Shown here: one piece after another, positions 1 to 20,677 of the stretch
Position numbering within the stretch: the stretch's first letter is position 1
How the letters are laid out: the number at the start of each line of letters is the position of its first letter
DNA from: Caecitellus pseudoparvulus
Lineage: Eukaryota; Protista; Bigyra: Bicosoecida
Length of the DNA stretch: 64,000 nucleotides
Assembly: GCA_965644315.1 (NCBI GenBank)
Contig: CBFFRQ010000198.1
Coordinates: 448-64,447 of the forward strand
Direction of reading: 5' to 3'
The notes under the pieces: model-generated
The model's input: only the letters and a program-made list of their open reading frames with translations
Told to the model about the DNA's origin: nothing
The model's database searches: none
Position numbers and translations under genes: made by a program

Positions 1-1
1 G

Positions 2-1471
2 TTCAAAAATTCATATATTGGATTTAAAAAAGCAGTTGTTAAATTTCATCACGAAGAATTAAAAGAAAACGAATTTAATTTATTACCACCTCTTAAATTT
101 AAACCTGAACCATACGAACAAACATCAGATGATTTAAAAGAGAAAGTTGATTATTTATTAAAAAATTATTTCTTACGTGTCTTATCAAATGGAAACGAGG
201 AGAATTATAATTATTTAATTAAATGGATAGCTAATATGGTTCAAGGTAATAAAAATACGTCTATGATAGTTTTAAAAGGTCCTGAAGGTTGCGGTAAATC
301 TACATTAATTAGATTTATTGAAGATATGCTAGGGCTTAAGAATGTTATTAATTCATCATCTCAACCACTAATTGAAAAATTTAATATGGAACTAATGGCT
401 AAAGTTTGCGTATACTTTGAAGAACTCACAGGAGGAACAACAAGAGGACAAAAAGCAGCAGCAGCAGCAAGATTAAGAGATTATATCACGAATCCATATT
501 TAAACTATGAAGAGAAAAATAAAAACCCATTAGAAAACATTAAGAATGTTTCAAATTTTATTTCTCTATCAAATGAATATTACGCAATCAAAGACGACCA
601 AGGCAGACGATATTTTATTTTAGATATTGACTCAAGCTTATTAGGCAATAATGAATACTGGGATAATATTCATAATAATTATGTTCATAATGAAAAAATT
701 TCAAAAGCATTATTTAATTTTTTTAATAGTGTTGATATTTCAGATTTTCAACCACTTAAAATGCCTATAACTGATTCAAAAATTAAAGCTCATTTAAAAT
801 CTTTTGACCCTTATATATCATTCATAAGAGAAAAATATTTATTCAAAAATAAAGGAATAGATAAAATTAAATGTAGAGATTTATTTTTAAAATATGCCAC
901 CTATTATGAAAAGGTATATAAAGAAACTATAAACACTAAATCACGTAAAACATCAGTTTTTTTCTATGATAGATTAGAACATTGGGGAATAAAAAAATAT
1001 AATAAAAAATTAGACGGTCGTAATGTTTATAAAATTTCATTTGAGGAATTAAAGAAAATATCAGAAAACTATAAATGGAATTTCAAATCAGAATATGAAG
1101 ACGAAGAAGAAGATGAAGAAGAGGACGACGAAGAAGAAATAGATTTTCAAGAAGAAGAAACAGAAAATAACCAAAAACCAGATTTTAAATCTCAAGCGTT
1201 AAAATATAAAAAAATATGTATAGAACAAGCACAAGAACTAAAAAAATTAAAGGAAGAATTAAGAGCGTTAAAATTAAATATTATTAAAAAAGAAGAGGAT
1301 AAATACGAGGATGACAGCGAAGATGAAGACAGCGACGATGAAGAAGAGATAATAACTTTATCAGATAAACACCAGAAATTAAATAAAAGTTTAAGTAGTA
1401 TGACAGCAGATAAAATCTCTAAGAAATCTGAGAAACCAGAATCAGACGATTTATTTAAAATTTCAATATAA
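2..1471 (+). CDS. SF3/D5-like (primase-)helicase, 5'-truncated by window edge
   Basis: Frame is open from position 2 (FKNSYIG...YLIKWIANMVQ). Walker A GPEGCGKS, Walker B VYFEE, motif C ISLSN, DQGRRY arginine finger; acidic/coiled C-terminus. Confidence 0.88.
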   Translation, partial: FKNSYIGFKKAVVKFHHEELKENEFNLLPPLKFKPEPYEQTSDDLKEKVDYLLKNYFLRVLSNGNEENYNYLIKWIANMVQGNKNTSMIVLKGPEGCGKSTLIRFIEDMLGLKNVINSSSQPLIEKFNMELMAKVCVYFEELTGGTTRGQKAAAAARLRDYITNPYLNYEEKNKNPLENIKNVSNFISLSNEYYAIKDDQGRRYFILDIDSSLLGNNEYWDNIHNNYVHNEKISKALFNFFNSVDISDFQPLKMPITDSKIKAHLKSFDPYISFIREKYLFKNKGIDKIKCRDLFLKYATYYEKVYKETINTKSRKTSVFFYDRLEHWGIKKYNKKLDGRNVYKISFEELKKISENYKWNFKSEYEDEEEDEEEDDEEEIDFQEEETENNQKPDFKSQALKYKKICIEQAQELKKLKEELRALKLNIIKKEEDKYEDDSEDEDSDDEEEIITLSDKHQKLNKSLSSMTADKISKKSEKPESDDLFKISI

Positions 1472-1512
1472 GATTTTTAATATTTAAGAAAATAATTTTC
1501 TATACTCACTTA

Positions 1513-1761
1513 ATGAATATAGAAAATTCTTTAAAATCAGAATCAGGAGAAAAGAAAATTACACCATCCAAAGAACCAGAAAAAGTCAAAGAATATAATA
1601 AGAAATATTATGAAAAAAACAAAGACCGAATTTTAAAACAAATGAACCGGGTTATAAGGTGTGATATTTGCGAGAAAGATGTTAAATTTTATAATTACCC
1701 TAAACACTGCCGAGGATTAAAGCATAAACACTTAAAGATAATGAAAGCTTTTGAAAATTAA
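1513..1761 (+). CDS. Small zinc-finger protein
   Basis: CDIC...KHCRGLKH (C2H2-like) preceded by YNKKYYEKNK, a pattern common in virophages and giant viruses; TCTA motif upstream. Confidence 0.7.
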   Translation: MNIENSLKSESGEKKITPSKEPEKVKEYNKKYYEKNKDRILKQMNRVIRCDICEKDVKFYNYPKHCRGLKHKHLKIMKAFEN

Positions 1762-1803
1762 AAAAATATCTAAATAAAATATGTTTAAAGAAAAAATATT
1801 TTA

Positions 1804-1821
1804 TCTAGTATAATATATATA
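1804..1821 (+). promoter_or_regulatory. TCTA late-promoter-like motif upstream of polymerase
   Basis: TCTAGTATAATATATATA then ATG; near-identical leader at 15364. Confidence 0.7.
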
Positions 1822-3777
1822 ATGGCTCAACAACAAAAACCCACATTCACACAAAGTGAAAATATAGCAGCTAAGACATTTAAAGCATTCAACCAGAAAA
1901 CAAAGAAATATAAAGATGGAGATTTAAAAATATCTTTATTTGGAGTTTCTGATAATGACGAAAGCGATTATTTAAATTTTGATGATACAATCGATAACCC
2001 TGAAGATTTAAAATATTATTCTCAGGCAGTAAGAGAGCAATTAAAAGGGACAACAATAAAAACCACTCAAAATTATTTAAATGTATTATCTAAACTAGCA
2101 CAATATAAAAATTTAGATTATAATATAAGCGTTTTATTTTCTATCGGATGGCGTAATATTTCCAATGGTTGGAAGAATCCAGGACAAAGAATCAAAATAA
2201 AAGATTTTTTCAACCAATACAACGCACCAAATATTAAATATGTTTATGGTGTATGTATTACAACAAAACCACATATAGAACCAGAAGAAGCAGAAGCAGG
2301 GGCAAACAGTGAATATAACGATTGTTTATATTTATCTATCAGACGAGTAATAGGGCAAGACAGGATGAAACCTTTTACAACTGCAGGACGTTTAAAGAAT
2401 TTTTTAAATTTAGATAGAAAAGATAAAGTGCCATTAAAGGACATTTCAAAAATAGAAGATAAATTAAATATTAATATTAATGTTTATGGTTTTGAGAATC
2501 CTATTTTATCAACCAAATCTAACCCACAAACCGTTAATTTACAATACAAAGACGGACATTTAAAAAATAAATATAATAAAAGAAAAGGATTATCAGGAAT
2601 CAAAAAACATAAATCAGATTTAAAAATTATCATATATCAGGAAAATTTAGATTTCATTATTTATTATGATGGAATTACAGAAGAAAAGACCGATAAGATA
2701 ACTTTTTATAAAGACATCTATAAAAAACATTTTCATTTTTACCAATCCAACACAAAGAATGATATTAAATCAGAGTATGAAAAATATAAGAATGATATTA
2801 ACGAAATAAAAAAAGATGTTGATATATTAAAATTCAAATCAATCTCAGATTTTATTAAAAATGAATGTTATTATATTTCTCAAAAGTTAAACATTGAACC
2901 TTTAGAAAATCCATTAGAAATCCATTTTTTAAATAAATGTTTCAGTGGTGGTTTAATCCATTGTAAGAAAGGAAAATATAAAAATGTTAGATGTTATGAT
3001 ATTAACAGTCAATATCCCTATATTCTACAACATCAACATTTTTTAATGCCAACTAAAACAGGTAAATTTGAGAAATTAACAGAAACTCCAAAATTTTATA
3101 GATTTGGAATTTATAGAGCAAGAATAACAGGAAAAATAGACGATGCCTTATTTAATGTGAAACAATCTAATTTTTACACTAGCTATGAATTAACCAGAGC
3201 AAAAGAACTAAATTATAATATTGAATTAATCCAAGATGGAAGATATAATTTTTTATTCTATGATTCTAAAAGCCGTGTTAATGGTTCAATGGTGTTTAAA
3301 GATTATATTAAAAAGATGATAACATTAAAACAAACCTTTAAAAATAATCAAATCCCTAAGATGTTATTAAATCGTTTATGGGGTTTGTTATGTTCTAAGA
3401 ATTTTAAAATAACATCATTAAAAACATATAATCAAAGTATAAACAATATTAATTTTATCCATCCTTCTAATGATAATAAAGAATATGTAGTAAATTACAG
3501 CCCAGATAATCCATTTAATACCGATTTAAGCCGCTTAAGTTGCTTTCTCACAGCTAAAGGGCGTGTTTTAATATCTTCAATAATTGAAAAATACGTAAAA
3601 GACACAAGTAAAATATATAGAATTCATACAGACGGATTTATAACCGATAAAAACATTATCATTAATAAAATTAAAGGATTAGGGAAAGACGAATTAAGTA
3701 ATAATGAACTAGGAGGATTAAAAATAGAATATGAAAAAGATAAAATCAAAATAGTTAATGTAAATAAAATAATCTAA
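1822..3777 (+). CDS. Divergent protein-primed family B DNA polymerase (putative TP-vOTU-Pol, no recognisable exonuclease)
   Basis: FSGG pre-motif, motif A YDINSQYP, motif B KMLLNRLWG, motif C variant YRIHTDG, terminal LGGLKIE; N-terminal NDCL...DGH protease-like dyad. Confidence 0.8.
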   Translation: MAQQQKPTFTQSENIAAKTFKAFNQKTKKYKDGDLKISLFGVSDNDESDYLNFDDTIDNPEDLKYYSQAVREQLKGTTIKTTQNYLNVLSKLAQYKNLDYNISVLFSIGWRNISNGWKNPGQRIKIKDFFNQYNAPNIKYVYGVCITTKPHIEPEEAEAGANSEYNDCLYLSIRRVIGQDRMKPFTTAGRLKNFLNLDRKDKVPLKDISKIEDKLNININVYGFENPILSTKSNPQTVNLQYKDGHLKNKYNKRKGLSGIKKHKSDLKIIIYQENLDFIIYYDGITEEKTDKITFYKDIYKKHFHFYQSNTKNDIKSEYEKYKNDINEIKKDVDILKFKSISDFIKNECYYISQKLNIEPLENPLEIHFLNKCFSGGLIHCKKGKYKNVRCYDINSQYPYILQHQHFLMPTKTGKFEKLTETPKFYRFGIYRARITGKIDDALFNVKQSNFYTSYELTRAKELNYNIELIQDGRYNFLFYDSKSRVNGSMVFKDYIKKMITLKQTFKNNQIPKMLLNRLWGLLCSKNFKITSLKTYNQSINNINFIHPSNDNKEYVVNYSPDNPFNTDLSRLSCFLTAKGRVLISSIIEKYVKDTSKIYRIHTDGFITDKNIIINKIKGLGKDELSNNELGGLKIEYEKDKIKIVNVNKII

Positions 3778-3782
3778 AAATA

Positions 3783-3814
3783 TTATAAAGAATCTAATAA
3801 AAGATTTTTTATAA
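3783..3814 (+). terminator. 3' hairpin after polymerase gene
   Basis: TTATAAAGAATCT / AGATTTTTTATAA, 13-bp stem with one G-U pair. Confidence 0.55.
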
Positions 3815-5828
3815 TGTTATTTAATATGAACTTGAATAAATTGAAAAAACAGGATTTAAAAGAGTTTTTCAAATATCAATATGGAAAATATCCACCCTCA
3901 AATTTTAAAAAGAAAGATATTATAACAGTTCTAAGCCACGACATACAAACAGGGGCAGGAATAAAGGATTTTTTCAGAAGTAAAGCAAATTCAACATTTT
4001 CATTTTTAAAGAAAGGTTATAATAAGGTAAAAGATACATTTAAACCAGTTCAAAAAATAGAAGATACAATAACAAAGCCTTTTGATTATAGAACACGTCT
4101 AACGAATGAAAGCAGAAAAACACTAGAAGAAGTAGGCGATAAAGTAATTAATAACATAACAATTATTAGAACACCAGTAAATAAAACGTTAGTTAGTATT
4201 TTAGATACGTTATCATTTGGATATTTTAAACAATTAATGGAAAATCACGGATTCGATAAATTTTTCCATTTAGCCTTAGTTTTATCAATAGATGGGCGAT
4301 ACGTAATTTTAGAGAAATTAGCAGAGGTTAATATATCATTCAATTATAAGAAATCATATACAGAGCTTAGCGAATCAACAACAGTTGAAAACTATCAAGG
4401 AGGTTTAACATTAAATCAAATGGTGAATAAAACCCGTGAATTTATGGGCGATAAATTATTTTTTGATTATGACGCCTTCACTAATAATTGTCAAAATTTT
4501 ATTATGTCAGTATTAACGGCAAATGGACTTGACAACCAAAGAAATAAAGAATTTGTTTTTCAGGATATTAAAGAGATTTATAATGAATTAGAAAAGAAAG
4601 CGTCTTATTTATCACCTTTCGCTAAAATGACAACACGTTTAGGGGCTTGGTGGAATAAACTCACAGGAGCCGGAAAAAATCAAGCTGATATATTAACAAA
4701 AAAGAAACCAATAAACTATGGAATAGAAACAAACGAAATTATTAAAATGTTATCATTCAATTATAAAAATGTTGAGGTTATGGGCTCATCAGCTATTAAG
4801 GCTACTTTATATCCTTCAGATTTTGATTTATACGAAGTTGTAAAGGTAAAGAACTTAGAGGATTTAGAAAATAAATTTCAAGATAAAATATTAAAAATAG
4901 TTCAATCTAAAAATATATATTTAGGAGATGTTAAAATTGGAGTATTTCCAGAATTTAAAATTTTAAACAGATGATATATATGTATAAAAACGGGCGATTA
5001 ATAGGATATCAACCAAAAACAAATTAAGAAAGATATTAAAAGATAAATTATATTTTTTACCAAAACAAGAAAAACAAGAATTATTAAAACTCATTAAAGC
5101 AAAACCAACACCAGACGAATTAGATATTATAAAAGATAAATTAAGATATCATATATTAAGATGGACTCCAGACAGAAATATTGAGACGGTTATAAAGAAT
5201 TATCAACAAATAAATATATTAGTTTATTAGATGCTTTTAAAAGTGATGGATTATTTAAAGTTAGACGTTGTAGGATTTACCAGAAATAAATTTATTGACT
5301 TTTCCATAATCTACGAATTACGAAACGAGAAAACAAACAAACGAATAAATAATTTTATGGTTAATGTGAAAGATAATTTAAACGACCAAATAAGAACATA
5401 TAAAATAAAGGGTCAATATTTCAAAGCTCTAAAGCGTGAATTCTCAAAATTAAAACATACTTTCACATATACAAAAAATAAAGAAACCAAAGAAAAAGCA
5501 TTAAGAAGATTAAAAGAACTAACGGCATTTTTTAACGGTCAAGCAGGTATTATATATAGTGTTATTAATGATATTGAGGCGTTATTAAATGTTATAAAAT
5601 TATCTGAATCTGAATATTCAAGCAATGAAAAAATAATTAATGTTATTCAAAGTTTTATATATAGATTATCCAATATTTATTCAGTTAATGAATATTTAAG
5701 AAATGAAAAGAATATTTTATTAAGTATAAAAGCAATATTGAAAAATCCTGAAAATATGGAGGAAAACTTGGAACAATTTACAAAATATTTTATTTAAGAT
5801 ATTAAATAAATTTTCTAAATCTATATAA
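3814..5828 (+). CDS. Permuted papain-like domain fused to a Pol-beta-superfamily nucleotidyltransferase (virophage V21-like); frameshifted after ~4970
   Basis: FFHLAL (His 4267) and YDAFTNNCQNF (Cys 4489); then VMGS...SDFDL NTase motif (4783-4827). Downstream frames give YHILRWTP and KLDVVGF...DFSIIY, joining ORFs 3814..4974 and 5231..5797. End position inferred. Confidence 0.65.
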
Positions 5829-6449
5829 TGTCAATGAATAATAACGAAGTCAGAGAATTATTATTAAAACTAGAACAAAATAGAACTTTAGAAAATCAAA
5901 CCGGTGCTGGTTGTTGTGATGAAAGAACGGTAGGCGGTCAAGATTTATTACGGAGATATTAAAAACAAAGAAAAAACATTTGATGATATTAATTATAAGC
6001 GTTTAGATGGATTGTTAGGAAGTAATAGAAGCCTTAGAAAAACCACCAAAGAAACGAGGAGGCAGAGTTCAAGGCGATTTCTTCAACATGGTGGAGCTAC
6101 TGGAGGTGCTAAACTAGGTGAAGAATACGCCCGAGAATTACAAAAACATTTTAAGCATTTAGAAGGTGGTGAGAGCTTCTGGGATGGTTTTAAAAGAGGT
6201 TTCAACTCCGTGATTGAAGCCCGTAACTAAAGTTGTTAAAAGCTGTTGCACCTGTATTACCTTATGGCAACGTAGTTAAAGTCTGGTCTAGAAGCTGTAG
6301 GATATGGGAAAGCACCAAAGAAAAAACGCCAACCATCAGAAAAACAAAAGAACACGGGGACAACTAATTAAAAGAATTGATGCACGAGCACGGGTTAAGC
6401 TTTAGGTGAAGCCTCTCGCTATATCAAACAGAATAATTTAATGGATTGA
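5828..6449 (+). CDS. Basic virophage core-like protein, frameshifted
   Basis: ATG at 5828 with upstream TCTA. Pieces read MSMNNNE..., LEGGESFWDGFKRG, and a C-terminal RGQLIK.LMHEHGLS.GEASRYIKQNNL resembling a C-terminal motif I recall from virophage proteins. Confidence 0.55.
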
Positions 6450-6509
6450 AATACTTAAGATAAATATCTAAATAATATAATATTAAAAATTATTATATAA
6501 TTTATTATA

Positions 6510-8375
6510 ATGACAGAAAATAAATTTAATATCATTCCATAGCGAACAGGCAGAACGTATGCGACGCCAAGTTATGGACGAAGTTAAAACAAACCCAAAA
6601 TTATATTAATTATACATTAAGGGGGCAATTTCAAAACCAACCCAAGGGCACATCCTACAGGCTACTTTTAATACATATGTCTCAACATTCTTTTAATACT
6701 GCTAATTTATCACAAATGAAACAAACTAAAAATTTAATTAGGAGGAGCTCAAACAAGTAGAAGGACACAATTTAATAATGAATCAGTTAAAAAATAGAGC
6801 TCTACAATTAGAGCAATTAAGTGCAGGATTACCAGCAACAACAAAGACCACAACAAGCAGCACAAGAAATACCAGATACCGTCTCTACTTCTTTAGAATT
6901 ATTCTTTAGTTCTTTAACAAGTTCTGATTTTTCATTATCTTATATTTCATCAATGAATAAAGAAGCAAAACAGGCATTAGGAAACTTGAAGCAATACGGG
7001 CTAGATTTAGATAAACAAACATTAGAAAGATACGCACAAATTACAGAAACACATTTAGATAATTATTTAACTAATATAGATGAATTGTATTTAGGGCGTG
7101 ATATATTCGGCTCATATCTTGAAAATAGAGACGGAAAACAAGAAAGGAAAAGAGGCGATTTATATTTGGATTATTTAGAGCGTATTGATTATTACGAGGT
7201 TATTTTTAAAATTTATTTAACATTACAAGCCCTTATTAATAGTTTTGGAACTTCACCAGATACCAGAAAACAGGCATTTAACGAACAATTTAAAAATATC
7301 ATTATGGCACCTAAAAATAAAATATTTAATCCAGAATTAAAAAGAATTGATGATATTTTAAAACGTGGTTATAAATCATTAAAAGACGTAATAAATAAAA
7401 GTGCATATGATGAAATTAAAGAATACTTTGAAACTGACAAGAAACAGAAAAAGAACCCAAGCTTAAAAGATAGAGGAGAAGAAAGGGGATTAAAGGATTA
7501 TGAAGATATGAGAGAAGAAGAAAGGGAAGCAGAAAGGGAAGAAAATAAAAGAAAAAGGGCTATTGAAAAATTACTAAGAGACTTTGATAAACAAAATGAA
7601 AAGCTAAGAAAACATTTTAATAAGTTTGAGAATAAAAACAAACCATTAAAAAGCAAATCATCAATTAAAACACGTGAAAAAAGACTAAAAGCACTTGAAG
7701 AAATAATAGCGAAACTTCAAAACCTAGGAGTAGAAGCACCACCAATAGCACAACCAGAAGGAACACCACCAAAAGCAAAACCAGCGGCACCAGTAGCACC
7801 AACAGGGGAAGCAAAAGAAGCACCAAAACAAGCGGAAGATGGAGGAATACCAGAATTTAAGCCACCACCAGCAGCAATAGAAGAAGACTCAGAAGACGAT
7901 TTACCAGAAGCCCCACAACCACCCAGAACAAAACAGGCACAAACACCAGCAACACCAGCCCCAGCCGTTCCACCTTCTCCAGCTTCTCCACTTGATGCGA
8001 CAATACAGCGACTATATGACGATTTACAAAATAAAGAAAAACGATTATTAGACCATATAGATAAATACACGGAAGATGACGGAGCCATAACAAATAAGAA
8101 AGCAAGAAACCATAGAAAAGATTTAAGAAAACAATACAACAAAGCAAAAGGCAGATTATGAAGCACAAATAAGAGGAAGAGCAAGGGAAACACCAACAAA
8201 GCCACCAAGCGGGGCAGCTGCACCATATGATGATACAGACGGAACAGGAGAAGAGGATTTAACAGGGCAAGGAATGAACCCCGCAAAATTCACAACCAAT
8301 TTTTTAAAAGGTTCCGGACCAATGTTTAAACAAATAGAACAAATTTTTAAAGGTAAAAGGCGTTTATGGAAATAA
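6510..8375 (+). CDS. Large coiled-coil / Pro-Ala-rich virophage protein, frameshifted at both ends
   Basis: Clean core ORF 6821..8161. Coding-like sequence extends upstream to ATG 6510 (GGAQ...EGHNLIMNQLKNRALQL) and downstream to TAA 8373-8375, followed by a long hairpin. Confidence 0.6.
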
Positions 8376-8481: not shown

Positions 8482-9277
8482 ATGCCTAGTTTTGAATTAC
8501 TTGATTATAAAAACTCTAAATTAAAAAAGGATTATACACCGGTTGCCATTGTTAAAGGTGATGAAAACCACAAAGACTTTAATAAATTCTTATGTTTAAC
8601 CGATAAAAACACGGGTCATAAAAGTATAAAACTACCTGATGATTTAATTTTTAATATTCTCCCATCAACAAAAAGGGGAAAACGTGATATTTTCTATATT
8701 GCTGGTGCTTCTGGTTCTGGTAAATCATATCAAGCAAAAATTATTTGTAATAATTATCATAGATTAAATCCGGATTTGCCTATATTTTTAATATCTAAAT
8801 TAGAAGAAGACGAAACGTTGGACGAATTGGACTATATCCACCGTGTAGATATTGAAGATTTTATAGAAGAATTTAATATTAATAATGAAGATTTAGCGGG
8901 ATTCTATATTTTTGATGATTTTGAAACATTAGAAAAACCTATTTTAGATAAAGTTATTAAAATCATTGATGATATATGTATTATGGGGCGACATAATAAT
9001 TTAACACTTAGCCTATATCAGCACACAATCTAACAAACTATAAAAAAACGACGGTTAATTCTTAAATGAATCCAGCACATATTGTTATTTTTCCTCAAAG
9101 TCTTCCTCACCTCATCAATTAGGCTATTTATTAAAGAAATTATGGAGGATGTGATAAAGACGAAATTAAGAAACTTACGCAAAGCTTAGGCAGGTGGACT
9201 GTGTGTCTTATACAAATTATCCGAATTATATATTATCTTCAAATTATGCTTATCTTTTACATCAGGACGAAGATTAA
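8482..9277 (+). CDS. A32/FtsK-HerA-like genome-packaging ATPase, frameshifted in 3' third
   Basis: Walker A GASGSGKS, Walker B FYIFDD, MGRH arginine motif; downstream frames give TNYKK.R and end YAYLLHQDED-stop at 9277. Confidence 0.9.
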
Positions 9278-9316: not shown

Positions 9317-9903
9317 ATGAAAAAATCTAAAAAATCTGACCCAGAACATAACGAAGAATTAAGACAAGAACTTAAACGATATTATTTATCAAATAGTGAT
9401 TTAGAATATTTATTTAATGATGATACAAATATTATAAGTTATGATAAACTATATAATTATAGACATATTGACGAAATCTTCGATAAAAAGGGGCGTTGTG
9501 TGTTATTATATCTGACGTCTGACCCTAATGTCGGTCATTGGGTAGGCACTTAATTAAAAAAGGAAACATTATAGAACATTTCGACCCTTACGGACACCCA
9601 CCAGACACAGCAACGGAAAATTTAGAGGCTTATGAAGAAGTAGAAAAACAAACAGGACAAGACGAACCCCGATTATTAAGAATGATAGACCAGGCGGGGT
9701 ATGGTTTAGAATATAATAAATACCCATATCAAAAGAAAGGAGAAGGTATAGGAACTTGTGGCAGACACACAGCGGCACGATTACTTTTATATAAATTATC
9801 TTTAGAAGATTATAAGAAATTAATGAAATCATTAAAAGATAAGAATTTAAAAGACTTTGACGACGTAGTCACCAAATTTACATATGATTTATTAAAAAAA
9901 TAA
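9317..9903 (+). CDS. Adenain-like (C5/Ulp1-fold) maturation cysteine protease, one frameshift near 9545
   Basis: GHW (His), EHFDPYG (Asp), YQ (oxyanion Gln) and TCGRH (Cys), split across ORFs 9317..9553 and 9538..9903. Confidence 0.9.
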
Positions 9904-11178: not shown

Positions 11179-13060
11179 ATGTCTCAATATAGAAAAAGTT
11201 AAAGTTAATGGACAGCCCGAATCGTCCAACCTCAAGCTCAAGATATGCCGTAAATGAAGGAGCAGTAAGTATCTACGTCAATACATCCAATTTCCAGGCT
11301 GCCACTGCTTCTAGTTCTTCACGTGCTTCTTGCAATATTACTGCACCTAATCAGCAATACGTTTATGGACCGTAATCTTGCCAGTAAGTGTTGATATTAT
11401 GCGGTAAAATTACTGCTACAATTACCACTAAAGATGGTAATCCCGCAGCCTTTCCAGTAGGATACCCAGGAAAACCCAGGTTTAACAGGACTGCCAGTTT
11501 TTACCCCCGGTGATTCTATCGCCCCCGCTGCTTATCCTTTCCAATCTTGTATGAGCACCACCACCGCAAACTATTAATAATTCCACAGTCTTCCGTGAAT
11601 TCTTCAAGATGTAATTTATGAAATTCTTAAAATGTCAGCTTCTAAAAGATAATCATAAAAGCAAGAACAACACCTTCAATGCTTGATAAATACGTCTCAT
11701 TATAATGACAGCACGCACACTTTCTAACAGTCAGTATTGAAAGGATATCAAGACAGCTTTAAATAATGATAATGTGCCAAATGGTGCTTTTCAAGGTTTT
11801 CAATGGGTTAAAGAAAATGGAGAACCTGCCGTAGCTGCTGATTATCAATGGCAAACACAAACAGGAACCGCCGTTTCTTGGAGTCAAACCGTATATTTTA
11901 AACTAACCGTCACGGAAAACTTAATTTTAAGTCCTTTCATTTTTAATGAATCTCAAGAAGATAACGTAGGCTTATACGGTTTAAATAACATTAAATTAAT
12001 GTTTAATGTTGGCGATGTTTCAAGAATGCTAAGATATACCACAAACCATAATTTATTAAATGATTGGAATTTCTCATATTCTCCCGTAAGCTTAAACGGT
12101 CAAGAACCTTTTAAAAATGCCGTTATTAATTGCACTTTTAGAACACCAAGTTTAAGTCTACCTTTACCAACTCGATCTATCGTGCCTTATATGGAATATC
12201 CCCGCTATATTACTACTACCGGGGCTAATATTGCTGATGGTTCAAGTGCTTCACTAACAAGCCAAACCATAACACTTTCTCAAATTCCTGATTTACTCTT
12301 AATTTATGCTAAACCTAATTTATCAGGTAATAACACATTAGGCGACCATTATTTACCCGTTAAAAAAATTTCTATGAATTTTATGAATGTAGCCGGTATT
12401 TTATCAAGTCATACCAAAGAGCAATTATTCCACATTTCACAAAATAACGGCTTAGATATGGACTGGAACGAATACTGCGGCGAAGCCTGGACCGACCAAA
12501 TCGCAACCGCAACTACTGGCGGTATTCCTGCTTCTAATGGTAAAGTTTCATTATGTGGTGGCTTCCTCGTTTTACGTCCTGGGGTTGACTTTGCTTTACC
12601 TGCTGGAGTTGCTAGTGGTTGTGGCGGAAATTTCAACCTTCAATATACCGTTGAAGTAGAAAATAAAAGCGGTCGTGCCGTTCAATCTCCTACATTATAC
12701 ACAATGGCTGTTAATAGTGGTTTCTTTGTTTCTGAAAACGGGCAATCAGCAATTACAACCGCTCCATTAAACGAACAAGACGTAATCCAAGCACCTATTG
12801 AAGGCGACACAATGTCATTAAAACGATATGTTGGCGGTAGTTTCTGGGATAAAGTAAACTCAGGATTAAAAAAAATAACAAATCATGAAGCTTATAAAAT
12901 GGCTTCTAAACTTGGAAAATCTGCTTTACGTGATGTAGGTATGGAAGGAAAAGTAGCAGCCGACGTTTTAGATAAATTGGGATTAGGTGTAAATACAGGA
13001 GGTGGAAAAACTACAGGTGGAAGAAGACGAAAAAATAACCTTCAAAATTTATTAAGTTAA
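11179..13060 (+). CDS. Virophage major capsid protein (double jelly-roll); 5' third frameshifted
   Basis: ATG 11179 with IEKVKV...RIVQ...YAVNEGA in shifting frames. Clean ORF 11774..13060 with TENLILSPF, SQTITLSQIPDLLLIY, YVGG-SFW and a basic Gly-rich tail. Confidence 0.93.
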
Positions 13061-13126: not shown

Positions 13127-15028
13127 ATGTATAATAACGCAAAATATCAATATGAAATGAATAAATTAGAAGTGTATAGCGAACCTGAAACAAATGCAAA
13201 CGTTGCGAGATTAAAAGAAGCCACTAATTATTTTTCAACTGCGGGGACTGCTTACGGAACTCAAGACACTATAAACGCAAACACCAATTTTAAAGCTATG
13301 TTCTTTACACAACCTCTAAAAGATGTTTTAAAAGCTCCAGACGATAGGGGGTCATATTCACGATTAAGCTTAAATTATTATTGCGAAATTGAAACAACAC
13401 TAAACGAACAATTAAATTTAAATGTCAGGTTAGATTATTACGATAAAGACGAAAATTATATTTCCTCTAGCAATGAAGCCGATATTTTAAACACAGACCA
13501 TTTAATAGATATTCAAATAGTAGGGGACGCCTTACAATTTCCAGCGAATACAAAATATATTTATTTGGCAGCTAAAAATAACGCAAATTTTAACACTACA
13601 TTTAAATTTAAACATGCAACGGCTAAAACTTCAACCGCTCAAGAAGTATTATTAGCAGACCCGCCCACTAATTCAAATCGTTTATTTGTGATACTCGGTA
13701 ACTCGACGCAAGGCACTCCTGCTCCAATACCCCCATCTAATCCATCATATGAAACCGTCACCCTTGATAAAGCCTCTAACCCTTCTTTAATCTTTGATAA
13801 TGGTTCATCAACAATGGATTTAACATATAATAGCGATGATGAATTAAATATTAACGGAAATTTAGGATTTGGAGGGACTGAAGTTTTACTAAATCAAGAC
13901 GATAATAATAAAATTTTAACTTTATCAGCTAAAAACGCCTCAACCGCTCAATTTAGAATTGGAAACGACCCAAATAAACAATTAACTTATTTTTATGAAA
14001 CAGGGGCAATTTATCTGAGTCCTAGTTGTCGTATTTTTCAAACTGATACCGCTTTTAATGATGATTGTTTAACCAATAAAAAATATGTTGATGATGAAAT
14101 AACTAATAATTGTGTCCAACTTACAGGAAATCAAAGCATAGCAGGAAATAAGACATTTTCAGGAATTACAAGCATAGAAGCTTTGCTAGATATGAATAAT
14201 AATAAAATTGAAAATGTAGCGACCCCAACTATAGGAACTGATGGAGCTAATAAAGCTTATGTTGATAGTGTGGCAGGTGGTAGCAGTTTTAATAATAATA
14301 TTAATTTGAATGGTAATAATATTGAAGATGTAGGAGAGATTCAAGCCGATAAATTAACGTTAATTCGTCCGGATGGTTCTTTGGTTTCATATTGGATAGA
14401 ACAATTAAGCAACGAAACAAGATACGTTAATATGAGTGGTGGTAGCAGTTCAGAACACGCCTTTTATTGTAATAATTCAGGTGGAGCGGTTCAGCGTTTT
14501 TCAGTTTCTAACACAGAACTTAAAACAAATGTTAAATTAGATATGGGCAATAGAAATATTGAATGGTTAAAAGATGCTACAACACAATATCACGCCCCAA
14601 ATTACGGGCAATTATTAGAAAGAACGGCAAAATTTCAAAGTTATAAAATAGCTCTTAATGATGTTTTCACCGCTAACACTTGGAAAACATTTGTTATGGA
14701 TGATGTTATCCCCGTTGAATCATACCAAACAGGAACATATATTTTAAGTGCTACTATAAATTTAGTAATTGATGGACCAGGACAAACAACAGCAGTTGTA
14801 TTTGGTAGAATGACCGTTCCTAATTCTGCTTCAGGTGAGGATAACACAATCGGGCGAATATTTATGGAAGCTGAAGCAGCTAAAAATTACGGACAAATTA
14901 CATTATCTAGAGTTATGACGGTATCTTCGGCGGGTAATTTTCCTATGTGGCATGTGGCAGTCAAAAGTGATATAAATGAAAATATAGACGTTGAAATAAC
15001 ATATAAAATGGATAGAATATCAAATTAA
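13127..15028 (+). CDS. Putative trimeric fibre/spike protein
   Basis: Repeated neck-like motifs DDCLTNKKYVDD, LDMNNNKIENVATPT..TDGANKAYVD and LDMGNRNIEWLKDA...APNYGQL; beta-rich; immediately after MCP. Confidence 0.65.
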   Translation: MYNNAKYQYEMNKLEVYSEPETNANVARLKEATNYFSTAGTAYGTQDTINANTNFKAMFFTQPLKDVLKAPDDRGSYSRLSLNYYCEIETTLNEQLNLNVRLDYYDKDENYISSSNEADILNTDHLIDIQIVGDALQFPANTKYIYLAAKNNANFNTTFKFKHATAKTSTAQEVLLADPPTNSNRLFVILGNSTQGTPAPIPPSNPSYETVTLDKASNPSLIFDNGSSTMDLTYNSDDELNINGNLGFGGTEVLLNQDDNNKILTLSAKNASTAQFRIGNDPNKQLTYFYETGAIYLSPSCRIFQTDTAFNDDCLTNKKYVDDEITNNCVQLTGNQSIAGNKTFSGITSIEALLDMNNNKIENVATPTIGTDGANKAYVDSVAGGSSFNNNINLNGNNIEDVGEIQADKLTLIRPDGSLVSYWIEQLSNETRYVNMSGGSSSEHAFYCNNSGGAVQRFSVSNTELKTNVKLDMGNRNIEWLKDATTQYHAPNYGQLLERTAKFQSYKIALNDVFTANTWKTFVMDDVIPVESYQTGTYILSATINLVIDGPGQTTAVVFGRMTVPNSASGEDNTIGRIFMEAEAAKNYGQITLSRVMTVSSAGNFPMWHVAVKSDINENIDVEITYKMDRISN

Positions 15029-15046: not shown

Positions 15047-15319
15047 ATGATTATTGATATTAAAAAAAGTAATAGAAAAAATAAACGTTTCGTCGCTATA
15101 TTTCATGATGGAACTAAAGCACATTTTGGATATAATGGAGGAGAAACATATATAGACCATAAAGACAAAAGAAAACGTGAAAATTACAGAAAAAGACACA
15201 AAAAAGATTTATTAACGTATGACCCTAAAAGACCAGGTTATTTATCATTCTTTTTATTATGGGGTGATGATGATAATTTAAAAGATGCCGTTAAAACATA
15301 TAATGAAATGTTTTTTTAA
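15047..15319 (+). CDS. Small basic viral protein (DUF5754-like)
   Basis: KSNRKNKRF...HFG...YIDHKD..KRENY.KRH...PGYLS..LLWG pattern, known from giant viruses and virophages. Confidence 0.7.
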   Translation: MIIDIKKSNRKNKRFVAIFHDGTKAHFGYNGGETYIDHKDKRKRENYRKRHKKDLLTYDPKRPGYLSFFLLWGDDDNLKDAVKTYNEMFF

Positions 15320-15363: not shown

Positions 15364-15378
15364 TCTAGTATAATATAT
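15364..15378 (+). promoter_or_regulatory. TCTA late-promoter-like motif
   Basis: TCTAGTATAATATAT directly before ATG 15379. Confidence 0.65.
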
Positions 15379-15942
15379 ATGAATTTAGAAAGCGGATTAA
15401 TGCTAGGGGGTGCTTTAGTATCCTTAGGAGTGTAAAGCTCTTATAATTGCTGGAAAAATGGAAGAGCTAAAAAATTTAAGGCGGTCAAATTTGGGGCTGT
15501 TGTTATGAGTTGTAAAACTGGAAAAAGTAGAATGTGTGAAAAATTAAAAGGCAATAATAAAGTGCTTTTAGTCGACGTCGGTGAAAGTGTAGAACGTGAA
15601 AACGGGGTTAATTCAAATGTTAATTATTTAGTAAAAGCTAAAGAATACGTTGATAAATTAAGAAAAGATTTAAAAGACCATTCTTTATTATTGGTTGTTT
15701 CTTCAATTGCTGAGGCTAAATTTTTGGGTTGTGATGATAAAGCCATCGTATGTTTAACCCCCTCTAATGATTTATTTAGAAAAATCACAGAAAATGTCCC
15801 AGCTGCTGAATTAAAAAAAGTTGAAGCCGACAGAATGGATTTAATCAGCAGTTGCGGTCAGGATTTATTAAATATCTTTGATAGTTTTGATAATTTATAT
15901 AATGTTATACGAACCACATTCAAATTATCTAACAAGTTCTAA
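15379..15942 (+). CDS. Small P-loop-like protein with hydrophobic N-terminus; in-frame TAA at 15433
   Basis: ATG 15379 has a TCTAGTATAATATATA leader and is in frame with ORF 15505..15942; VVMSCKTGKS and LLVD are Walker A/B-like. Confidence 0.5.
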
Positions 15943-15947
15943 AAAAA

Positions 15948-15966
15948 AATAATAAGGTTTATTATT
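15948..15966 (+). terminator. Hairpin in convergent intergenic region
   Basis: AATAATAA-GGT-TTATTATT; short and AT-only, so weak evidence by itself. Confidence 0.35.
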
Positions 15967-16069
15967 AAGACGCTCTAAAGGTGTTAAATAAAAAAGTAAA
16001 AAACAAAATAAGAGACAAAATATAAAACCTGATATTAAATATATTTTCATAATGTCTATAAAAATATAT

Positions 16070-16531
16070 TTATATTTTAATCTTTTCAATTGGTTTTAGT
16101 TCTGTTATGGGTATTTCTAAATGAATTTTATTTATACCTCTATCATGCCTACAAATGTTTTTTTTATTGAATGTATTAAATATTTTTGATTTATATTTAA
16201 TATAATATAAACCATCGCTGAAATTAAATAAGAAATAAAAACGTTTATTAGGATGTTCTAATTTAGCAGCTTTTATATGTCTTATCTTTTCAATGTTTAT
16301 TATTGTTGTTGGGTATTTGTTATATGTATTATTTCGGCTCTTCAACTCTATATTATATTTTCCGTCTTTTGTTATAAAGTCAAAATGATTAAAAAAATCA
16401 GTTGTTTTGTAAAATTTGTTTTTGGTTATTTTATTAAGTCTTTTTAATACTTGATGTTCTTTATTAAATCCTTCATCTCTTGATTTTCTTAAACTATTTA
16501 TATATTTTTGAGTCGGTTTTGTAAAATCCAT
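16070..16531 (-). CDS. PD-(D/E)XK-family nuclease
   Basis: E...HFDF...NIELKSR catalytic pattern; FNFSDGLYY; TCTA upstream. Confidence 0.7.
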   Translation of the reverse strand: MDFTKPTQKYINSLRKSRDEGFNKEHQVLKRLNKITKNKFYKTTDFFNHFDFITKDGKYNIELKSRNNTYNKYPTTIINIEKIRHIKAAKLEHPNKRFYFLFNFSDGLYYIKYKSKIFNTFNKKNICRHDRGINKIHLEIPITELKPIEKIKI

Positions 16532-16563
16532 ATTATCATGACTTAGAAAATATATTTAATGAT

Positions 16564-17622
16564 TTATTTTTTCTTAGAGTTTTTTTTATATTTTTTCACT
16601 AAATCAGGAACCTGAGAATTTATGCGTTTGGCTTCTTCGTATGTTTGCTCTTTGTATCCCTTCCATTTTATACGATAATATTTTTTATTCTTAATCTTTT
16701 TCTCTCCTGTTATCTTCTCTACTTCATAGCGTTTATTATCTTCTATTTCTTCTGGTTTATCTTGTTCTTTTGGATTATATAAAAGTTGATTTCGTGTGTA
16801 TCCTGTATTATCTATACCTTCAATAGTATATATTGGCGGTTGTCCTGGTGTAATTAAAACACCTTCTATTTTTCTTAGTTTGTTTTCATATCTAAAATCA
16901 CCCGTTCTAAATAATGTTCCGTGTAATCTTTTACCGTCTATATTTTGTGGATAGTCTAAAATAATTTTTACTAAATCTCCACGTTTCAATATGTCTTTTG
17001 GTATATATGGCATTTTGAAAAATTCTTTAATTCCTATTTTTGGTCGTTTTAATATTATTTCATTATATAATTTCATGATTTGCGGGATAGTTTCTACCCA
17101 TTCTTTATTTTCTTGTTTATGGATGAGTTCAAAATTTTTTTGTTTCAGTGCTATAATACGCCCTAACGTTTTATTTAATGCTTCAACAACTGCTGTTTGC
17201 CTATGTCTTGCAACTCTTGAATTTTTCAACGTCGCATTATCTGAACTCTCAAAATATTTTTTAACATCCCCTTTACATTCTTTGCCATCATCTGTTTTAA
17301 ATATCACGGATGGAGGGTTTAAATATTTTCGTTTCCATATTCTCTTTAACGCTTTCAATACGGTTTTGCTTTCTTTATTTTTTAATGGCTCAGCATCTGC
17401 GGCTTTTGTTGCTACATCTACCACAACTAATAAATATTTATAGCCTTTATCCTCTGGTAAAAATAATAAATCACCTTGTTGAATACTATCTTTAATTAAT
17501 GCTTTATGTTTTGGTATCTCTTCGCCTTTATCTTTCTTTGGAGGTTTGGTTAATGTTGTTAATTCTGATTTTTTAGAATCTTTAAAAATTTTCAATTCTT
17601 CCAAAATCTTATCTGATATCAT
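16564..17622 (-). CDS. Retroviral-type (rve, DDE) integrase with C-terminal chromodomain
   Basis: QGDLL, YLLVVVD, KTDDGKE and VVEALNKTL (D-D-E triad); C-terminal YEVEKI...YYRIKWKGY...TYE chromodomain. ORF is intact. Confidence 0.93.
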   Translation of the reverse strand: MISDKILEELKIFKDSKKSELTTLTKPPKKDKGEEIPKHKALIKDSIQQGDLLFLPEDKGYKYLLVVVDVATKAADAEPLKNKESKTVLKALKRIWKRKYLNPPSVIFKTDDGKECKGDVKKYFESSDNATLKNSRVARHRQTAVVEALNKTLGRIIALKQKNFELIHKQENKEWVETIPQIMKLYNEIILKRPKIGIKEFFKMPYIPKDILKRGDLVKIILDYPQNIDGKRLHGTLFRTGDFRYENKLRKIEGVLITPGQPPIYTIEGIDNTGYTRNQLLYNPKEQDKPEEIEDNKRYEVEKITGEKKIKNKKYYRIKWKGYKEQTYEEAKRINSQVPDLVKKYKKNSKKK

Positions 17623-17636
17623 TAATAATATATAGA
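17623..17636 (-). promoter_or_regulatory. TCTA late-promoter-like motif upstream of integrase
   Basis: TAGA at 17633-17636 on + strand (TCTA on -), 10 nt before the integrase ATG. Confidence 0.65.
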
Positions 17637-17650
17637 TTAATATATTATTA
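17623..17650 (-). terminator. 3' hairpin after 17656..18207 gene
   Basis: TAATAATATA / TATATTATTA, 10-bp perfect stem. Confidence 0.5.
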
Positions 17651-17655
17651 GTAAT

Positions 17656-18207
17656 TTAAAATTTATGGTCTGGGTATTCCTCTTTTAAGTATTTAATTAA
17701 ATCTTCTTTTGTTTCATATCTGGTATAAAATCCATTGTTCTTAATTCTGGTTATCATTTTAATAAAAAACTCATCTTTTAATAATTCTTTTAATTCATAT
17801 GATACCGTTTTTATATTTTTTGGTAGCTTGGGTAATATCTGAGATTTTAAAATATAATGTTGTTGAACGAAAGCCTCCGGGCAGTTTGTCCCTAGTGTAT
17901 CAATAATAAATTGTCTCTTGGATAAATCATCAATATATAAATTTATAACTTCTAATAAATCTATTAATTGTTCGAATGTTTTAATTTTATTTTTAATGTC
18001 TTCTGTTTCTGCTTCAACTTCTAATTTAACTTTTTCTAAATTCTCTAATTTGGTTTCTTTTCTGATTTTTATAGATGGTTCATTAAATATTGAGTAATAA
18101 AAGAAATACGAATAATCCTCAATTTTACAAAATTTATTAATTAATGAGTGATAAGAATTCAACTCCCTCTTATGAATTGTTAATAATGTCTTTAGACTTT
18201 TTGTCAT
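17656..18207 (-). CDS. Hypothetical viral protein
   Basis: 183-aa ORF in AT-rich DNA with TCTA 10 nt upstream and a hairpin just past the stop; no motif recognised. Confidence 0.65.
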   Translation of the reverse strand: MTKSLKTLLTIHKRELNSYHSLINKFCKIEDYSYFFYYSIFNEPSIKIRKETKLENLEKVKLEVEAETEDIKNKIKTFEQLIDLLEVINLYIDDLSKRQFIIDTLGTNCPEAFVQQHYILKSQILPKLPKNIKTVSYELKELLKDEFFIKMITRIKNNGFYTRYETKEDLIKYLKEEYPDHKF

Positions 18208-18362
18208 TATATATACTTAGAATATTTATTTTTTAAATTATTTTTTAGATTTAAATAAATTAGTTTTAAGAAAAAAATAATCTAGAGCTTTTTAATATAT
18301 CAAGATGTAATTTATATAATGTATTAAATCAACGTTGTATCATAAGCCATAATATCCATTCA

Positions 18363-18399
18363 TTTTATAAATATTAATTATCAAATAATATTTATAAAA
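18363..18399 (-). terminator. 3' hairpin after 18392..18928 gene
   Basis: TTTTATAAATATTA / TAATATTTATAAAA, 14-bp perfect stem overlapping the stop. Confidence 0.65.
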
Positions 18400-18928
18400 A
18401 TTCATCTTTTGAGACTGTTTCAAATAATCCTAATCTTTCGGCATTGTCTGGATGATATACAACCGGTATTAATTCATCTAAAACATTTTTATATTTCCTT
18501 TTGTGTTTTTCTTTATGTCTTAGAATTTTTATATATTCTTTTAATGTATTTGAAGACCATTTAAAATGTGGAACTACTGATATTAAATCAGAAAAGAAAC
18601 AATCTTTCTTTTCTATTCCTTCTGCACTCCATTCCTTATCGGGATATTTAAAAATCCAATCAATACTAAAATATTTAAATTTATGAAATATCTTAAAATT
18701 TAAATAACCATCATTATACTTATCTATTAGTTCTATTGTTAATCCTGATTTTTTTATATTCTTAATATCTTCAATTGTTATTTTTGAATTATCAGCCCCT
18801 TTTAATCTTGTAATTTCAATAAATTTCTCTCTTACACATTCTATATTGCCACAACAACTTAATAAAATATCATCTTCTATGTTATTACAGGTTATAATAT
18901 CATAATATAAATTAAAATCAATATTCAT
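18392..18928 (-). CDS. Hypothetical protein with giant-virus-like motifs
   Basis: KYPDKEW and C-terminal DELIPVVYHPD motifs; perfect 14-bp hairpin over the stop codon. Confidence 0.6.
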   Translation of the reverse strand: MNIDFNLYYDIITCNNIEDDILLSCCGNIECVREKFIEITRLKGADNSKITIEDIKNIKKSGLTIELIDKYNDGYLNFKIFHKFKYFSIDWIFKYPDKEWSAEGIEKKDCFFSDLISVVPHFKWSSNTLKEYIKILRHKEKHKRKYKNVLDELIPVVYHPDNAERLGLFETVSKDEFL

Positions 18929-18999
18929 TATAGACCTATATAAAATAAAAATCTTTAAACATTTATATAATATCTTGAAATATATTGTTGATTACTTCT

Positions 19000-19650
19000 T
19001 TATTTGCTTTTTTGTTTGCTTTTTTTGTCTTTATTTGCTTCTCTGTATTTTTTTTGATACTCTATATTCTTTTCTTTATTGACTTCCCTATATGCTTTTA
19101 TTTTGTCTTTATTTGCTTCTCTGTATTTTTTTTGATACTCTATATTCTTTTCTTTGTTGGCTTCCCTGTATTTTTTCATTTTATCTTTGTTTGCTTCCCT
19201 GTATGCTCTTTCTCGTTCTTTAACTTTTTCTTTGTTTGCTTTATTATATTCATTTTGATATTCCTTTTTTTTTTCTTTATTTAGTTCATAATACCGTTTT
19301 TTTTTTTCTTTTATTGTATCTTTATTCGCTTCATAATATGCTTTATACTTTTCTTTATTGGCTTTGTTATATTCTTTCATTGTTCTTCCTGGTATATTTT
19401 TATTTACACATTCCATTTTTTCAATATAATATCGTTCTCTTGCGTGTAATTCCTCTTTACTTTGACACGGGTATTTTTCAATTAAAATAATATCAAAATC
19501 ATCATAATTAGCTAATTCTTTTGACATACAAGAATTTTTATTTATTTTATGTTGATGTTTTCTCTTGGATAATCTCTGAGTTGTTGAACCAATGTAAATT
19601 TTTCCACCTCCTACAAGCTTATATATTTTTCCGTCGTTGTAATTAACCAT
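19000..19650 (-). CDS. GIY-YIG endonuclease with tandem basic helical repeats
   Basis: NYNDGKIYKL...IYIGST, R...H, ELHARERYYI; followed by repeats of the Y(R/Y)EANK(D/E)K type. Confidence 0.88.
   Translation of the reverse strand: MVNYNDGKIYKLVGGGKIYIGSTTQRLSKRKHQHKINKNSCMSKELANYDDFDIILIEKYPCQSKEELHARERYYIEKMECVNKNIPGRTMKEYNKANKEKYKAYYEANKDTIKEKKKRYYELNKEKKKEYQNEYNKANKEKVKERERAYREANKDKMKKYREANKEKNIEYQKKYREANKDKIKAYREVNKEKNIEYQKKYREANKDKKSKQKSK
19023..19155. repeat. 78-bp-period direct repeat inside the GIY-YIG gene
   Basis: 19023-19077 is identical to 19101-19155 (TTTTGTCTTTATTTGCTTCTCTG...TTTTCTTT). Confidence 0.9.
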
Positions 19651-19734
19651 TTTATTAGAATAGTATATACTGTTCTTTTTAAGTCGTTTTTATGTGTTTT
19701 TTATTATATATTCGCACACGCCCCACGCTATGTC

Positions 19735-20116
19735 TGATTTAGTGTTTAAGTGATTTAGTGATTAAGTGTTAAGGGTTATAATGGATTTAGTGTTAAATGA
19801 TATATGAATAAGTGATTTACAATGTATCTTTTTATTTTGTCATTTCGCCTCCTTTGATTGTTTCTAAAATAGGGTAATTGGATGGATGGTTGATTGCTTC
19901 AATTTTGTTTTGACTGATTGTTGATGAAGTGTTAAGAATAGTCTCAGAAAAAATATATATATATATATTTATTATATTTTTTATATTATTTCTATTTATT
20001 GTAGTGATAACCCTTAAGATAACACTTATAAAATAGTAGTAAAAAGTAAGTAAAAAATATATTAAAGGGTTTATAAGTGATTGTTTTTATAGGGATAGTG
20101 TCTAATAAGTGTTATA
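19735..20116. repeat. Subterminal short imperfect repeats (probable TIR interior)
   Basis: TGATTTAGTG(T/A)TTAAG in tandem at 19735 and 19751; related AAGTGTT/AAGGGTT units at ~19783, 19810, 19927, 20063 and 20104, and inverted at ~20008-20028; non-coding. Confidence 0.6.
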
Positions 20117-20677
20117 GATATAATATAAATATATCTAAGAATGGTATTTATAAATAAAGTCTAAAAATATAGTATAAAAATATATCTGTTTTTAGTCGCA
20201 AACTGCGGCAGCAGTTGAGACATATCGCTCATAAATTCATTTATGGATTTATAGTCCCCCGTCGGAAACCGGCCCGGGATAATGGGGGAAGTTGAATTGT
20301 GAACTGATGGAATGTCTGAGTGGGTTGCGCTGGCTGCGCACCCCCCCCACGAGACCGAGCTCTGGCCCCCTCGCGGGCATGTGGACCTTTCTACCAAGGG
20401 GCGGGCGTTGAAACGCCCTAGCGAAGCGGCGGCTTATACAACGGACTCACGTCTGTGCTGGCTGCAGATCCATTAACATGGTAGCCGCTGTGGTGTACAT
20501 CGTGGCGCATTCGTGCGCGACGGTGAGCAGGACACCACGTGTGATGCCCCAGCTGCACCGCGCCTGTGGCAAGCGTGGAAGCGAATTGCAATGCATTGAA
20601 CTGTCTAACCCTTTTGTATTCCACAAACAAGCCATTGAACAGTGGATGTGGTTGAGACACGCAGCACAGCAAGCAAT

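Follow-up and report, generated by a model that had tools for sequence, protein, structure and literature searches.

The 64,000-nt stretch of contig CBFFRQ010000198.1 analyzed here (the window, whose positions serve as coordinates throughout) opens with a virophage element at 1-20260, the left end of which lies beyond the window, and continues into eukaryotic DNA. Virophages are small viruses that live as parasites of giant viruses. GC content is 28.3% in the element and 62.8% in the remainder of the window, with values per kb of 20-37% up to ~20.2 kb and of 58-68% thereafter. All four virophage core genes are found together in a plus-strand run, in the order ATPase, protease, penton and major capsid protein (MCP); a superfamily 3 (SF3) helicase, a protein-primed DNA polymerase (pPolB) and a V21-like gene precede this cluster and a probable fiber gene follows it, and the minus-strand genes near the right end encode a PD-(D/E)XK nuclease, an rve integrase with a chromodomain and a GIY-YIG-like protein (Table 1).

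A preliminary description of this DNA had reported such an AT-rich block, joined to GC-rich intron-bearing DNA; its anatomy of the element is correct, while its claim of novelty was overstated, as discussed below. The genes it named are present and abut eukaryotic genes of 63% GC, and the MCP motifs it quoted were found, spread across frames. The V21-like gene proved not to be separate but to form the C-terminal portion of a single gene with frameshifts; the end of the element is at 20260 rather than at 20254, and the flank, GC-rich as described, is intron-poor, with one probable intron.

We consider it probable that the element is a virophage whose capsid is not of mavirus type (likely that of Burtonviroviridae or of the subclade sister to it) but whose helicase, pPolB and rve kit is. 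It was likely inserted by its own integrase into a repeat, multi-copy and probably subtelomeric, in the genome of a GC-rich marine protist, and its predicted activator is the late transcription apparatus of a CroV-like giant virus.

Capsid module and replication genes

The MCP places the element among the virophages by its match to PF22031 and, in PDB, to Sputnik (3j26); the penton does so through PF21507, and the ATPase and protease through their catalytic motifs and 47-54% identity to L002 (L numbers and P0243 denote the virophage-related loci and sequences used for comparison). The open part of the MCP matched Sputnik V20 with an E value of 4e-23 among PDB sequences, with no mavirus chain at E<=10, and a profile built from 29 MCP sequences scored Sputnik at 231 bits vs 42 bits for mavirus; P0243 is the nearest full-length relative (73% identical). 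The MCP had been proposed to be nearer to the Sputnik type than to mavirus, with its nesting in mavirus or in the endogenous mavirus-like elements (EMALEs) named beforehand as the result that would overturn the proposal; both the profile and the sequence searches speak against such nesting, and the core capsid proteins do not group with mavirus as those of Maviroviridae and EMALEs do. Nor is the capsid of Polinton or polinton-like virus (PLV) type, as the MCP matched the virophage model and not PF21738.

Two MCP trees were constructed, one with 141 sequences using FastTree and one with 38 sequences (a subset across the clades plus distant outgroups) using IQ-TREE. In both, the window MCP shares a subclade with L001-L004 and L072, and in the smaller tree also with L167; there the subclade of the window and L072 (SH-aLRT 99) is sister to L047, L005, L055 and L014, with a joint support of 98. 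All five MCP relatives whose clusters carry a family label in Table S1 of Roux 2023 (PMC9952930), namely L072, L047, L005, L055 and, via PE_179, L014, are listed as Burtonviroviridae; no entry was found in the accessible part of that table for L001-L004, L009, L013, L043 and L044, and the row of L040 has no label. Several points argue the other way: the cluster of L167 is labelled 'Maveriviricetes; Unclassified' in the same source, the label of L072 is BLAST-based, so that the family is uncertain, and neither tree contains a named mavirus or Sputnik sequence. The window subclade is sister to tree-labelled members of Burtonviroviridae and contains the unclassified L167. Judged by its sequence, the capsid module is neither of mavirus nor of EMALE type, and its family is likely Burtonviroviridae or the sister subclade of that family.

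The replication genes have a different affinity. The predicted model of pPolB (pLDDT 77.6) had as its best BFVD match the pPolB of mavirus (E 1e-42 over 617 columns, 26% identity; next match 4e-22), in agreement with the preliminary description, and phi29 polymerase was its top match in PDB. The protein has 1,366 relatives at E<=0.001, and a copy in another assembly is identical at 642 of 651 positions; nine of the 28 members of its alignment match PF03175. The invariant residues C168, H246, D393, K513 and T603-D604 comprise a Cys168/His246 pair plus palm motifs, which would fit a TP-vOTU-palm type with little room for an exonuclease; mavirus pPolB is itself a TP-vOTU-palm, exonuclease-less enzyme paired with an SF3 helicase termed S3H (Krupovic 2024, PMC11161782). 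DUF5906, detected in the window helicase, has been reported as specific to the pPolB group that contains mavirus (Wei 2026, PMC13215967), and the D,D(35)E triad of the integrase is intact. On the modelled structure pPolB is mavirus-type, and the element shares with Maviroviridae and EMALEs the set of such a polymerase, a separate S3H and an rve integrase.

This pairing of kit and capsid is not confined to the window. Among 86 pPolB-related loci a related rve is found in 30, the helicase in 18 and a virophage MCP in four; all of these four match Sputnik-type Pfam models and the three compared to PDB match Sputnik only, and three further loci carry a PF21738 capsid. Separate trees, as the preliminary description had proposed, place the MCP with the L072 subclade, pPolB with L087-L093 (support 0.91) and rve with L091-L093 (0.98). 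The pairing recurs in the metagenomic loci L167, L168, L082, L084, L085 and L142, and because L167 carries the whole architecture intact on one contig, it is not a product of misassembly. The earlier view of the combination as unusual finds no support, and the pairing is also in print (PMC6905037; bioRxiv 10.64898/2026.07.28.741278): rve and PolB were described in six virophages of distinct clades by Paez-Espino 2019 (PMC6905037), and swapping of replication and capsid modules is regarded as routine (Barth 2026, bioRxiv 10.64898/2026.10.13.758929). Direct transfer of the kit from mavirus was considered and rejected; there is no sign of it, since pPolB shares so low an identity with that of mavirus and the kit is common to PLVs, related pPolBs being paired with several virophage and PLV capsid types.

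As a separate observation, in L002 and L072 (1394-3524), which are close relatives in the capsid, a distant rve (24%) occurs together with an ORF that we read as recombinase-like, with no Pfam match; they have no pPolB match within the available DNA and few TCTA promoters (see below), a turnover of modules and promoters inside one capsid subclade.

The frameshifted gene that follows pPolB is covered by a single intact ORF in L088 and L164. Its N-terminal part is an NNCQ-motif domain (weakly LRAT-like) and its C-terminal part a V21-like domain of nucleotidyltransferase fold, with the signature GS..DxD of that type. The model of this second domain from L088 matched the 'V21 virophage-like protein' of YSLV5, Zamilon and Fadolivirus and, in PDB, GTP-bound Megavirus Mg662 (4xul; Z 26.6, root-mean-square deviation 3.4, 331 aligned residues); a profile of the domain gave no credible match to PDB sequences. 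Its relatives are spread across Mimiviridae and pithoviruses. The fusion occurs in the window (3814-5797), in L088 (1695-3692) and in L167 (9586-11568), and in relatives the NNCQ domain stands alone as a gene or is included in other proteins.

Table 1. Features annotated in the window, with the evidence for each.
Feature	Position	Strand	Evidence
Virophage element	1..20260		28.3% GC; four core genes; terminus from independent 1001-bp contig, match ending at 20260
SF3 helicase, 5' end cut by window	2..1471	+	DUF5906 E 3e-16; TIGR01613 E 1e-14; Walker A GPEGCGKS
Small ORF adjoining pPolB	1513..1761	+	Homologs next to pPolB in L087, L091, L093
Mavirus-type pPolB	1822..3777	+	BFVD and PDB structure matches; conserved residues
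NNCQ-motif and V21-like fusion gene, frameshifted	3814..5797	+	Intact 666-aa ORF in L088/L164, 42-44%
Conserved gene of no assigned function, frameshifted, end approximate	5828..6450	+	37% to L002:5533-6024
Conserved gene of no assigned function, 5' part frameshifted, start approximate	6510..8161	+	34% to L002:4199-5500; 31% to L167
Packaging ATPase, frameshift near 3' end, end approximate	8482..9275	+	Motifs GASGSGKS, IFDD; 47% to L002 ATPase; 53% to L167
Cysteine maturation protease, one frameshift	9317..9903	+	Motifs GHW, FDPYG, CGRH (His, Asp, Cys); 53-54% to L002
Penton (minor capsid protein), frameshifted	9939..11083	+	PF21507 (Sputnik V18/19) E 6e-7; ends 70% identical to L001
MCP, 5' third frameshifted, 11741-13057 open	11179..13060	+	PF22031 (V20_C) E 4.5e-45; 73% to intact P0243
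Putative fiber/spike protein	13127..15028	+	Position, weak BppL_N match; homologs after MCP in L001, L002, L004, L072, L167
DUF5754 protein	15047..15319	+	PF19058 E 1.5e-14
Small ORF, start approximate	15379..15942	+	Weak AAA_17 match; homologs in L091, L093
PD-(D/E)XK nuclease	16070..16531	-	PF24579 E 2e-8
rve integrase, C-terminal chromodomain	16564..17622	-	PF00665, PF00385; D51, D111, E147 intact
Two ORFs, no informative family in family searches	17656..18207 and 18392..18928	-	ORF calls
GIY-YIG-like endonuclease	19000..19650	-	41% to PF01541 ORF of L002
Putative right terminal inverted repeat, ~567 bp, C run at its end	19694..20260		Depth jump, loose ends, X8 contig
Multi-copy host repeat, likely target site	20261..20612		GC-rich loose end before 20261 in 6/7 runs; CCCTAA loose end behind 20599 in 3/7
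Host ORF, hydrophobic stretches, no Pfam family found	21221..23290	-	ORF and family search
Host giant stop-free frame, 9,835 codons, three SPRY stretches	27244..56748	-	No other Pfam family; GC content at third codon positions 0.78
Probable 71-nt GT..AG intron	56560..56630	-	Would join giant frame to hydrophobic N-terminus upstream
Host importin-alpha-like gene, divergent	58612..60522	-	Arm/HEAT; importin-alpha homologs; long branch in importin tree
Host MFS_2 transporter	60733..62781	-	PF13347 E 3e-40

Right end, integration and state of the copy

Contigs from seven of the 23 sequencing runs listed were aligned to the window, and four runs, from four studies (one of them possibly the source), were examined over 5400-25300; the results hold among the contigs listed, and contig depth does not equal copy number. 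A jump in depth at 19692-19733, together with loose ends before 19694-19695 in runs X4 and X5, fits the inward boundary of another copy of the repeat, from which the right terminal inverted repeat (TIR) would span ~567 bp. The match to an independent contig in X8 stops at 20260, and from 20261 the sequence runs leftward into the same GC-rich letters in six of the seven runs, therefore unoccupied copies of the host repeat exist. The break coincides with the element terminus and falls inside a host repeat, as expected of an insertion, and element and host flank were both covered in all four runs. On the other side of the balance, among the contigs listed none bridges 20260/20261 with 31 letters per side, X13 had no depth in two of 30 bins, over the MCP (11376-12703), and the left TIR and the target duplication lie outside the window. 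Integration into the host, which the preliminary description had claimed, is likely.

That description had also named a chimeric assembly at the junction as a possible refutation, and here the co-occurrence and the coincidence at the terminus favor a genuine join, with the spanning contig missing among those listed. A misassembly in which the host repeat was connected to a virophage that is free, or integrated at another place, would be helped by the multi-copy nature of the sequences on either side, which favors misjoins, and by the lack of a bridging contig among those listed; however, the join matches an independently seen terminus and lies inside the repeat, not in shared sequence, and the joint presence of element and flank in every run aligned supports residence in the host even if the exact site were wrong. 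We give this explanation very little credence.

The target repeat is probably subtelomeric, or could be the end of a telomere-associated retroelement. In the window a short telomere-like remnant lies between it and unique DNA, and other copies run into (CCCTAA)n. Its folding was no better than that of shuffled sequences (z -0.17) and it had no credible Rfam match, so that a ribozyme or a retroelement end is no more than conjecture. The terminus pattern gave no matches in metagenome and viral contigs, the TIR had none in the comparison loci, and scans of viral contigs with the single MCP, pPolB and rve proteins found no match, a phage collection likewise giving none. Some variants were also seen. 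The X8 contig shares no more than the outermost 274 bp of the TIR (19987-20260) and, taken with the MCP gap in X13, other element types may share these ends; a contig of X1 connects 20260 to the upstream position 20053 across two intervening letters, which might reflect an element inserted in the TIR of another; and contigs in X1 and X7 skip 18960-19677 with the GIY-YIG gene, a presence/absence polymorphism of homing-endonuclease kind.

A frameshift-aware alignment to intact relatives gave ~33 shifts (21 extra-base and 12 missing-base) while in-frame stops were absent from the 2,021 aligned codons of five genes; the number of shifts is sensitive to the alignment penalties chosen. The extra base at 10755, in the penton gene, is missing from contigs in all four runs, and those at 11590 and 11603 are missing from short-read contigs of X1, the latter also from X7. 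Splits of the same sort in EMALE genes were assembly errors that were removed on Sanger re-sequencing (Hackl 2021, PMC8547959). A decaying copy with genuine frameshifts, surviving with a defective capsid and mobilized by a helicase, pPolB and integrase that are still intact, would account for the concentration of breaks in 3.8-11.75 kb, where all four core genes are affected, with pPolB and integrase open, and decayed virophage remnants are known from Halocafeteria (bioRxiv 10.64898/2026.07.28.741278). This is unlikely in our judgement, given so many indels without one in-frame stop, the short-read contigs that lack the extra bases, the open 3' two-thirds of the MCP, the open fiber gene, and the EMALE precedent. 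We infer that the frameshifts of the capsid genes are long-read assembly errors, and because of this the element is likely functional in at least some copies. Separately, the intergenic DNA ahead of the ATPase has an inverted repeat with 31-nt arms (8371-8468), a possible hairpin terminator.

The flank is eukaryotic, with importin-alpha, SPRY and MFS genes; the importin-alpha and MFS frames are unbroken, as is the giant frame over all its codons. No Rfam model matched the window at gathering level, so no 18S gene was found. Searches with the importin-alpha and MFS proteins gave 98% matches among ENA proteins. Host sequence is present in metagenomes from the sea as well as in runs assigned to five organisms (three among those aligned), which suggests that the host is a common flagellate in cultures. 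It is presumably bicosoecid-like, with Caecitellus as a lead from the literature; Cafeteria burkhardae and Halocafeteria were discounted because of their GC content and telomere unit, and because no named protein proved near-identical, proteins of C. burkhardae being present in NCBI. An 84-bp hairpin with 32-nt arms at 20678-20761, with raised depth in several runs, resembles a miniature inverted-repeat transposable element.

Promoter, predicted helper and comparison with known systems

The word TCTA, the late motif of CroV, was found at -21 to -13 of 11 of the 17 gene starts of the element vs 25 of 565 other ATGs, and none of 20,000 shuffles reached six; this is what is new here. Out of sample, it precedes 11 of 16 plus-strand genes in L167 and recurs in L167 and L168. 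Among EMALEs TCTA occurs in type 4 only (PMC8547959), a trait that the element shares; type 4 is the sole type that CroV reactivates (Koslova 2024, PMC10945749), promoter match predicts reactivation in Cafeteria (PMC10945749), and the motif is common to CroV and ChlorV (PMC13196603). Its enrichment leads us to predict a helper among Aliimimivirinae, and suggests a CroV-like giant virus. Some findings qualify this: the interval was chosen after inspecting the starts, some starts were hand-picked in frameshifted DNA, six of the 17 lack the word, including those of the protease and fiber genes, and L002 has it in only two of 13 genes. The provirophage might be genuine with a helper that is not CroV-like, TCTA being inherited or read by another giant-virus lineage, or might belong to a family as yet unnamed beside Burtonviroviridae. 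TCTA is short and AT-rich and is documented, in the source available, for CroV and ChlorV only (PMC13196603), the L167 cluster is unclassified (PMC9952930), and relatives of the V21-like domain extend over Mimiviridae and pithoviruses; but position and enrichment fit the CroV late motif and are repeated in L167 and L168, and a promoter match was predictive in Cafeteria (PMC10945749). We rate this possibility as slighter still than that of a misjoin.

With a CroV-like helper, and by analogy with mavirus, the integrase would have linked the ends of the TIRs with host DNA, duplicating a short piece of the target, and the provirophage would lie dormant until its TCTA promoters are used by a giant virus. 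pPolB would copy the linear genome, starting at its C/G-run ends, as the helicase unwinds it; the capsid would be packaged and matured with the help of the ATPase and the protease, and the released particles would reduce giant-virus yield. The element would thus be mavirus-like in its working, but it lies outside Maviroviridae.

In Cafeteria, integrated virophages of mavirus type have been shown to be reactivated (PMC10945749), and Burtonviroviridae had no isolate in 2023 (PMC9952930). In the present element the genes for replication and integration are intact, copies occur in several host populations that are independent of one another, and the promoter suggests a helper from a giant-virus subfamily of which members are in culture. 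Its promoter and its spread are good reasons to consider it as a second inducible provirophage system, one that lets us ask whether provirophage defence reaches beyond mavirus and whether helper specificity tracks the promoter and not the capsid. A bolder proposal, tentative and rather doubtful, is that of a widespread, probably culturable marine flagellate with several active, polymorphic provirophages of an isolate-less Priklausovirales lineage, converged on the mavirus strategy (polymerase type, integrase, CroV late promoter) with an unrelated capsid. If true, challenge of the host with Aliimimivirinae would release the first Burtonviroviridae-like virions, and inducible virophage defence would extend beyond Maviroviridae.

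The preliminary description had suggested a lineage with no known host. A Burtonviroviridae virophage from a Caecitellus genome is, however, already listed by Roux 2023 (PMC9952930, section 2.5 and Table S1) as unpublished data, in a partial record of 19,690 bp in which ATPase, MCP and protease (PRO) were detected. It can be compared by description alone, as the accessible text does not describe its gene content, its promoter or the site of integration; a literature search for Caecitellus and virophage found no description of its gene content, on which the supplements (Table S4) could bear. Virophage MCPs are also known from several other protist genomes (Bellas 2023, PMC10120064).

Like mavirus and the type 4 EMALEs of Cafeteria burkhardae (PMC8547959, PMC10945749), the element is AT-rich and ~20 kb long with a long TIR, S3H, short pPolB, rve, TCTA promoters and a GC-rich flagellate-like host; unlike them, it has an MCP and penton of Sputnik V20 and V18 type and a divergent pPolB. 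No EMALE, as far as the sources available describe them, resembles non-Mavirus virophages, and C. burkhardae has ~70% GC vs 63% in the window flank (bioRxiv 10.64898/2026.06.25.734631). With Burtonviroviridae ('aquatic virophages 2'; PMC9952930) it shares the nearest family-labelled MCPs, a V21-like gene and the order PRO-penton-MCP, whereas the 80 nearest IMG/VR MCP loci have this pPolB in none and an rve in two within the available DNA, many being short. L167 (cluster IMG_VR_1427) has a helicase, rve, pPolB, the V21 fusion, the two conserved genes, ATPase, PRO, penton, MCP and fiber, in identical order from pPolB to fiber, with TCTA before its genes as given above; it differs in having the integrase left of pPolB, a different helicase, a contig without host DNA, and identities of 32% (pPolB), 38% (rve) and 42% (MCP). 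Finally, the endogenous virophages of Halocafeteria seosinensis (Haro 2026, bioRxiv 10.64898/2026.07.28.741278) belong to a non-mavirus capsid clade, are often subtelomeric and carry pPolB and RVE in several subtypes, with CroV-late-like promoters in one subclade, a likeness drawn from description and not from capsid sequence; their host has 47% GC and TAACCCT telomeres (bioRxiv 10.64898/2026.06.25.734631) vs 63% and CCCTAA here.

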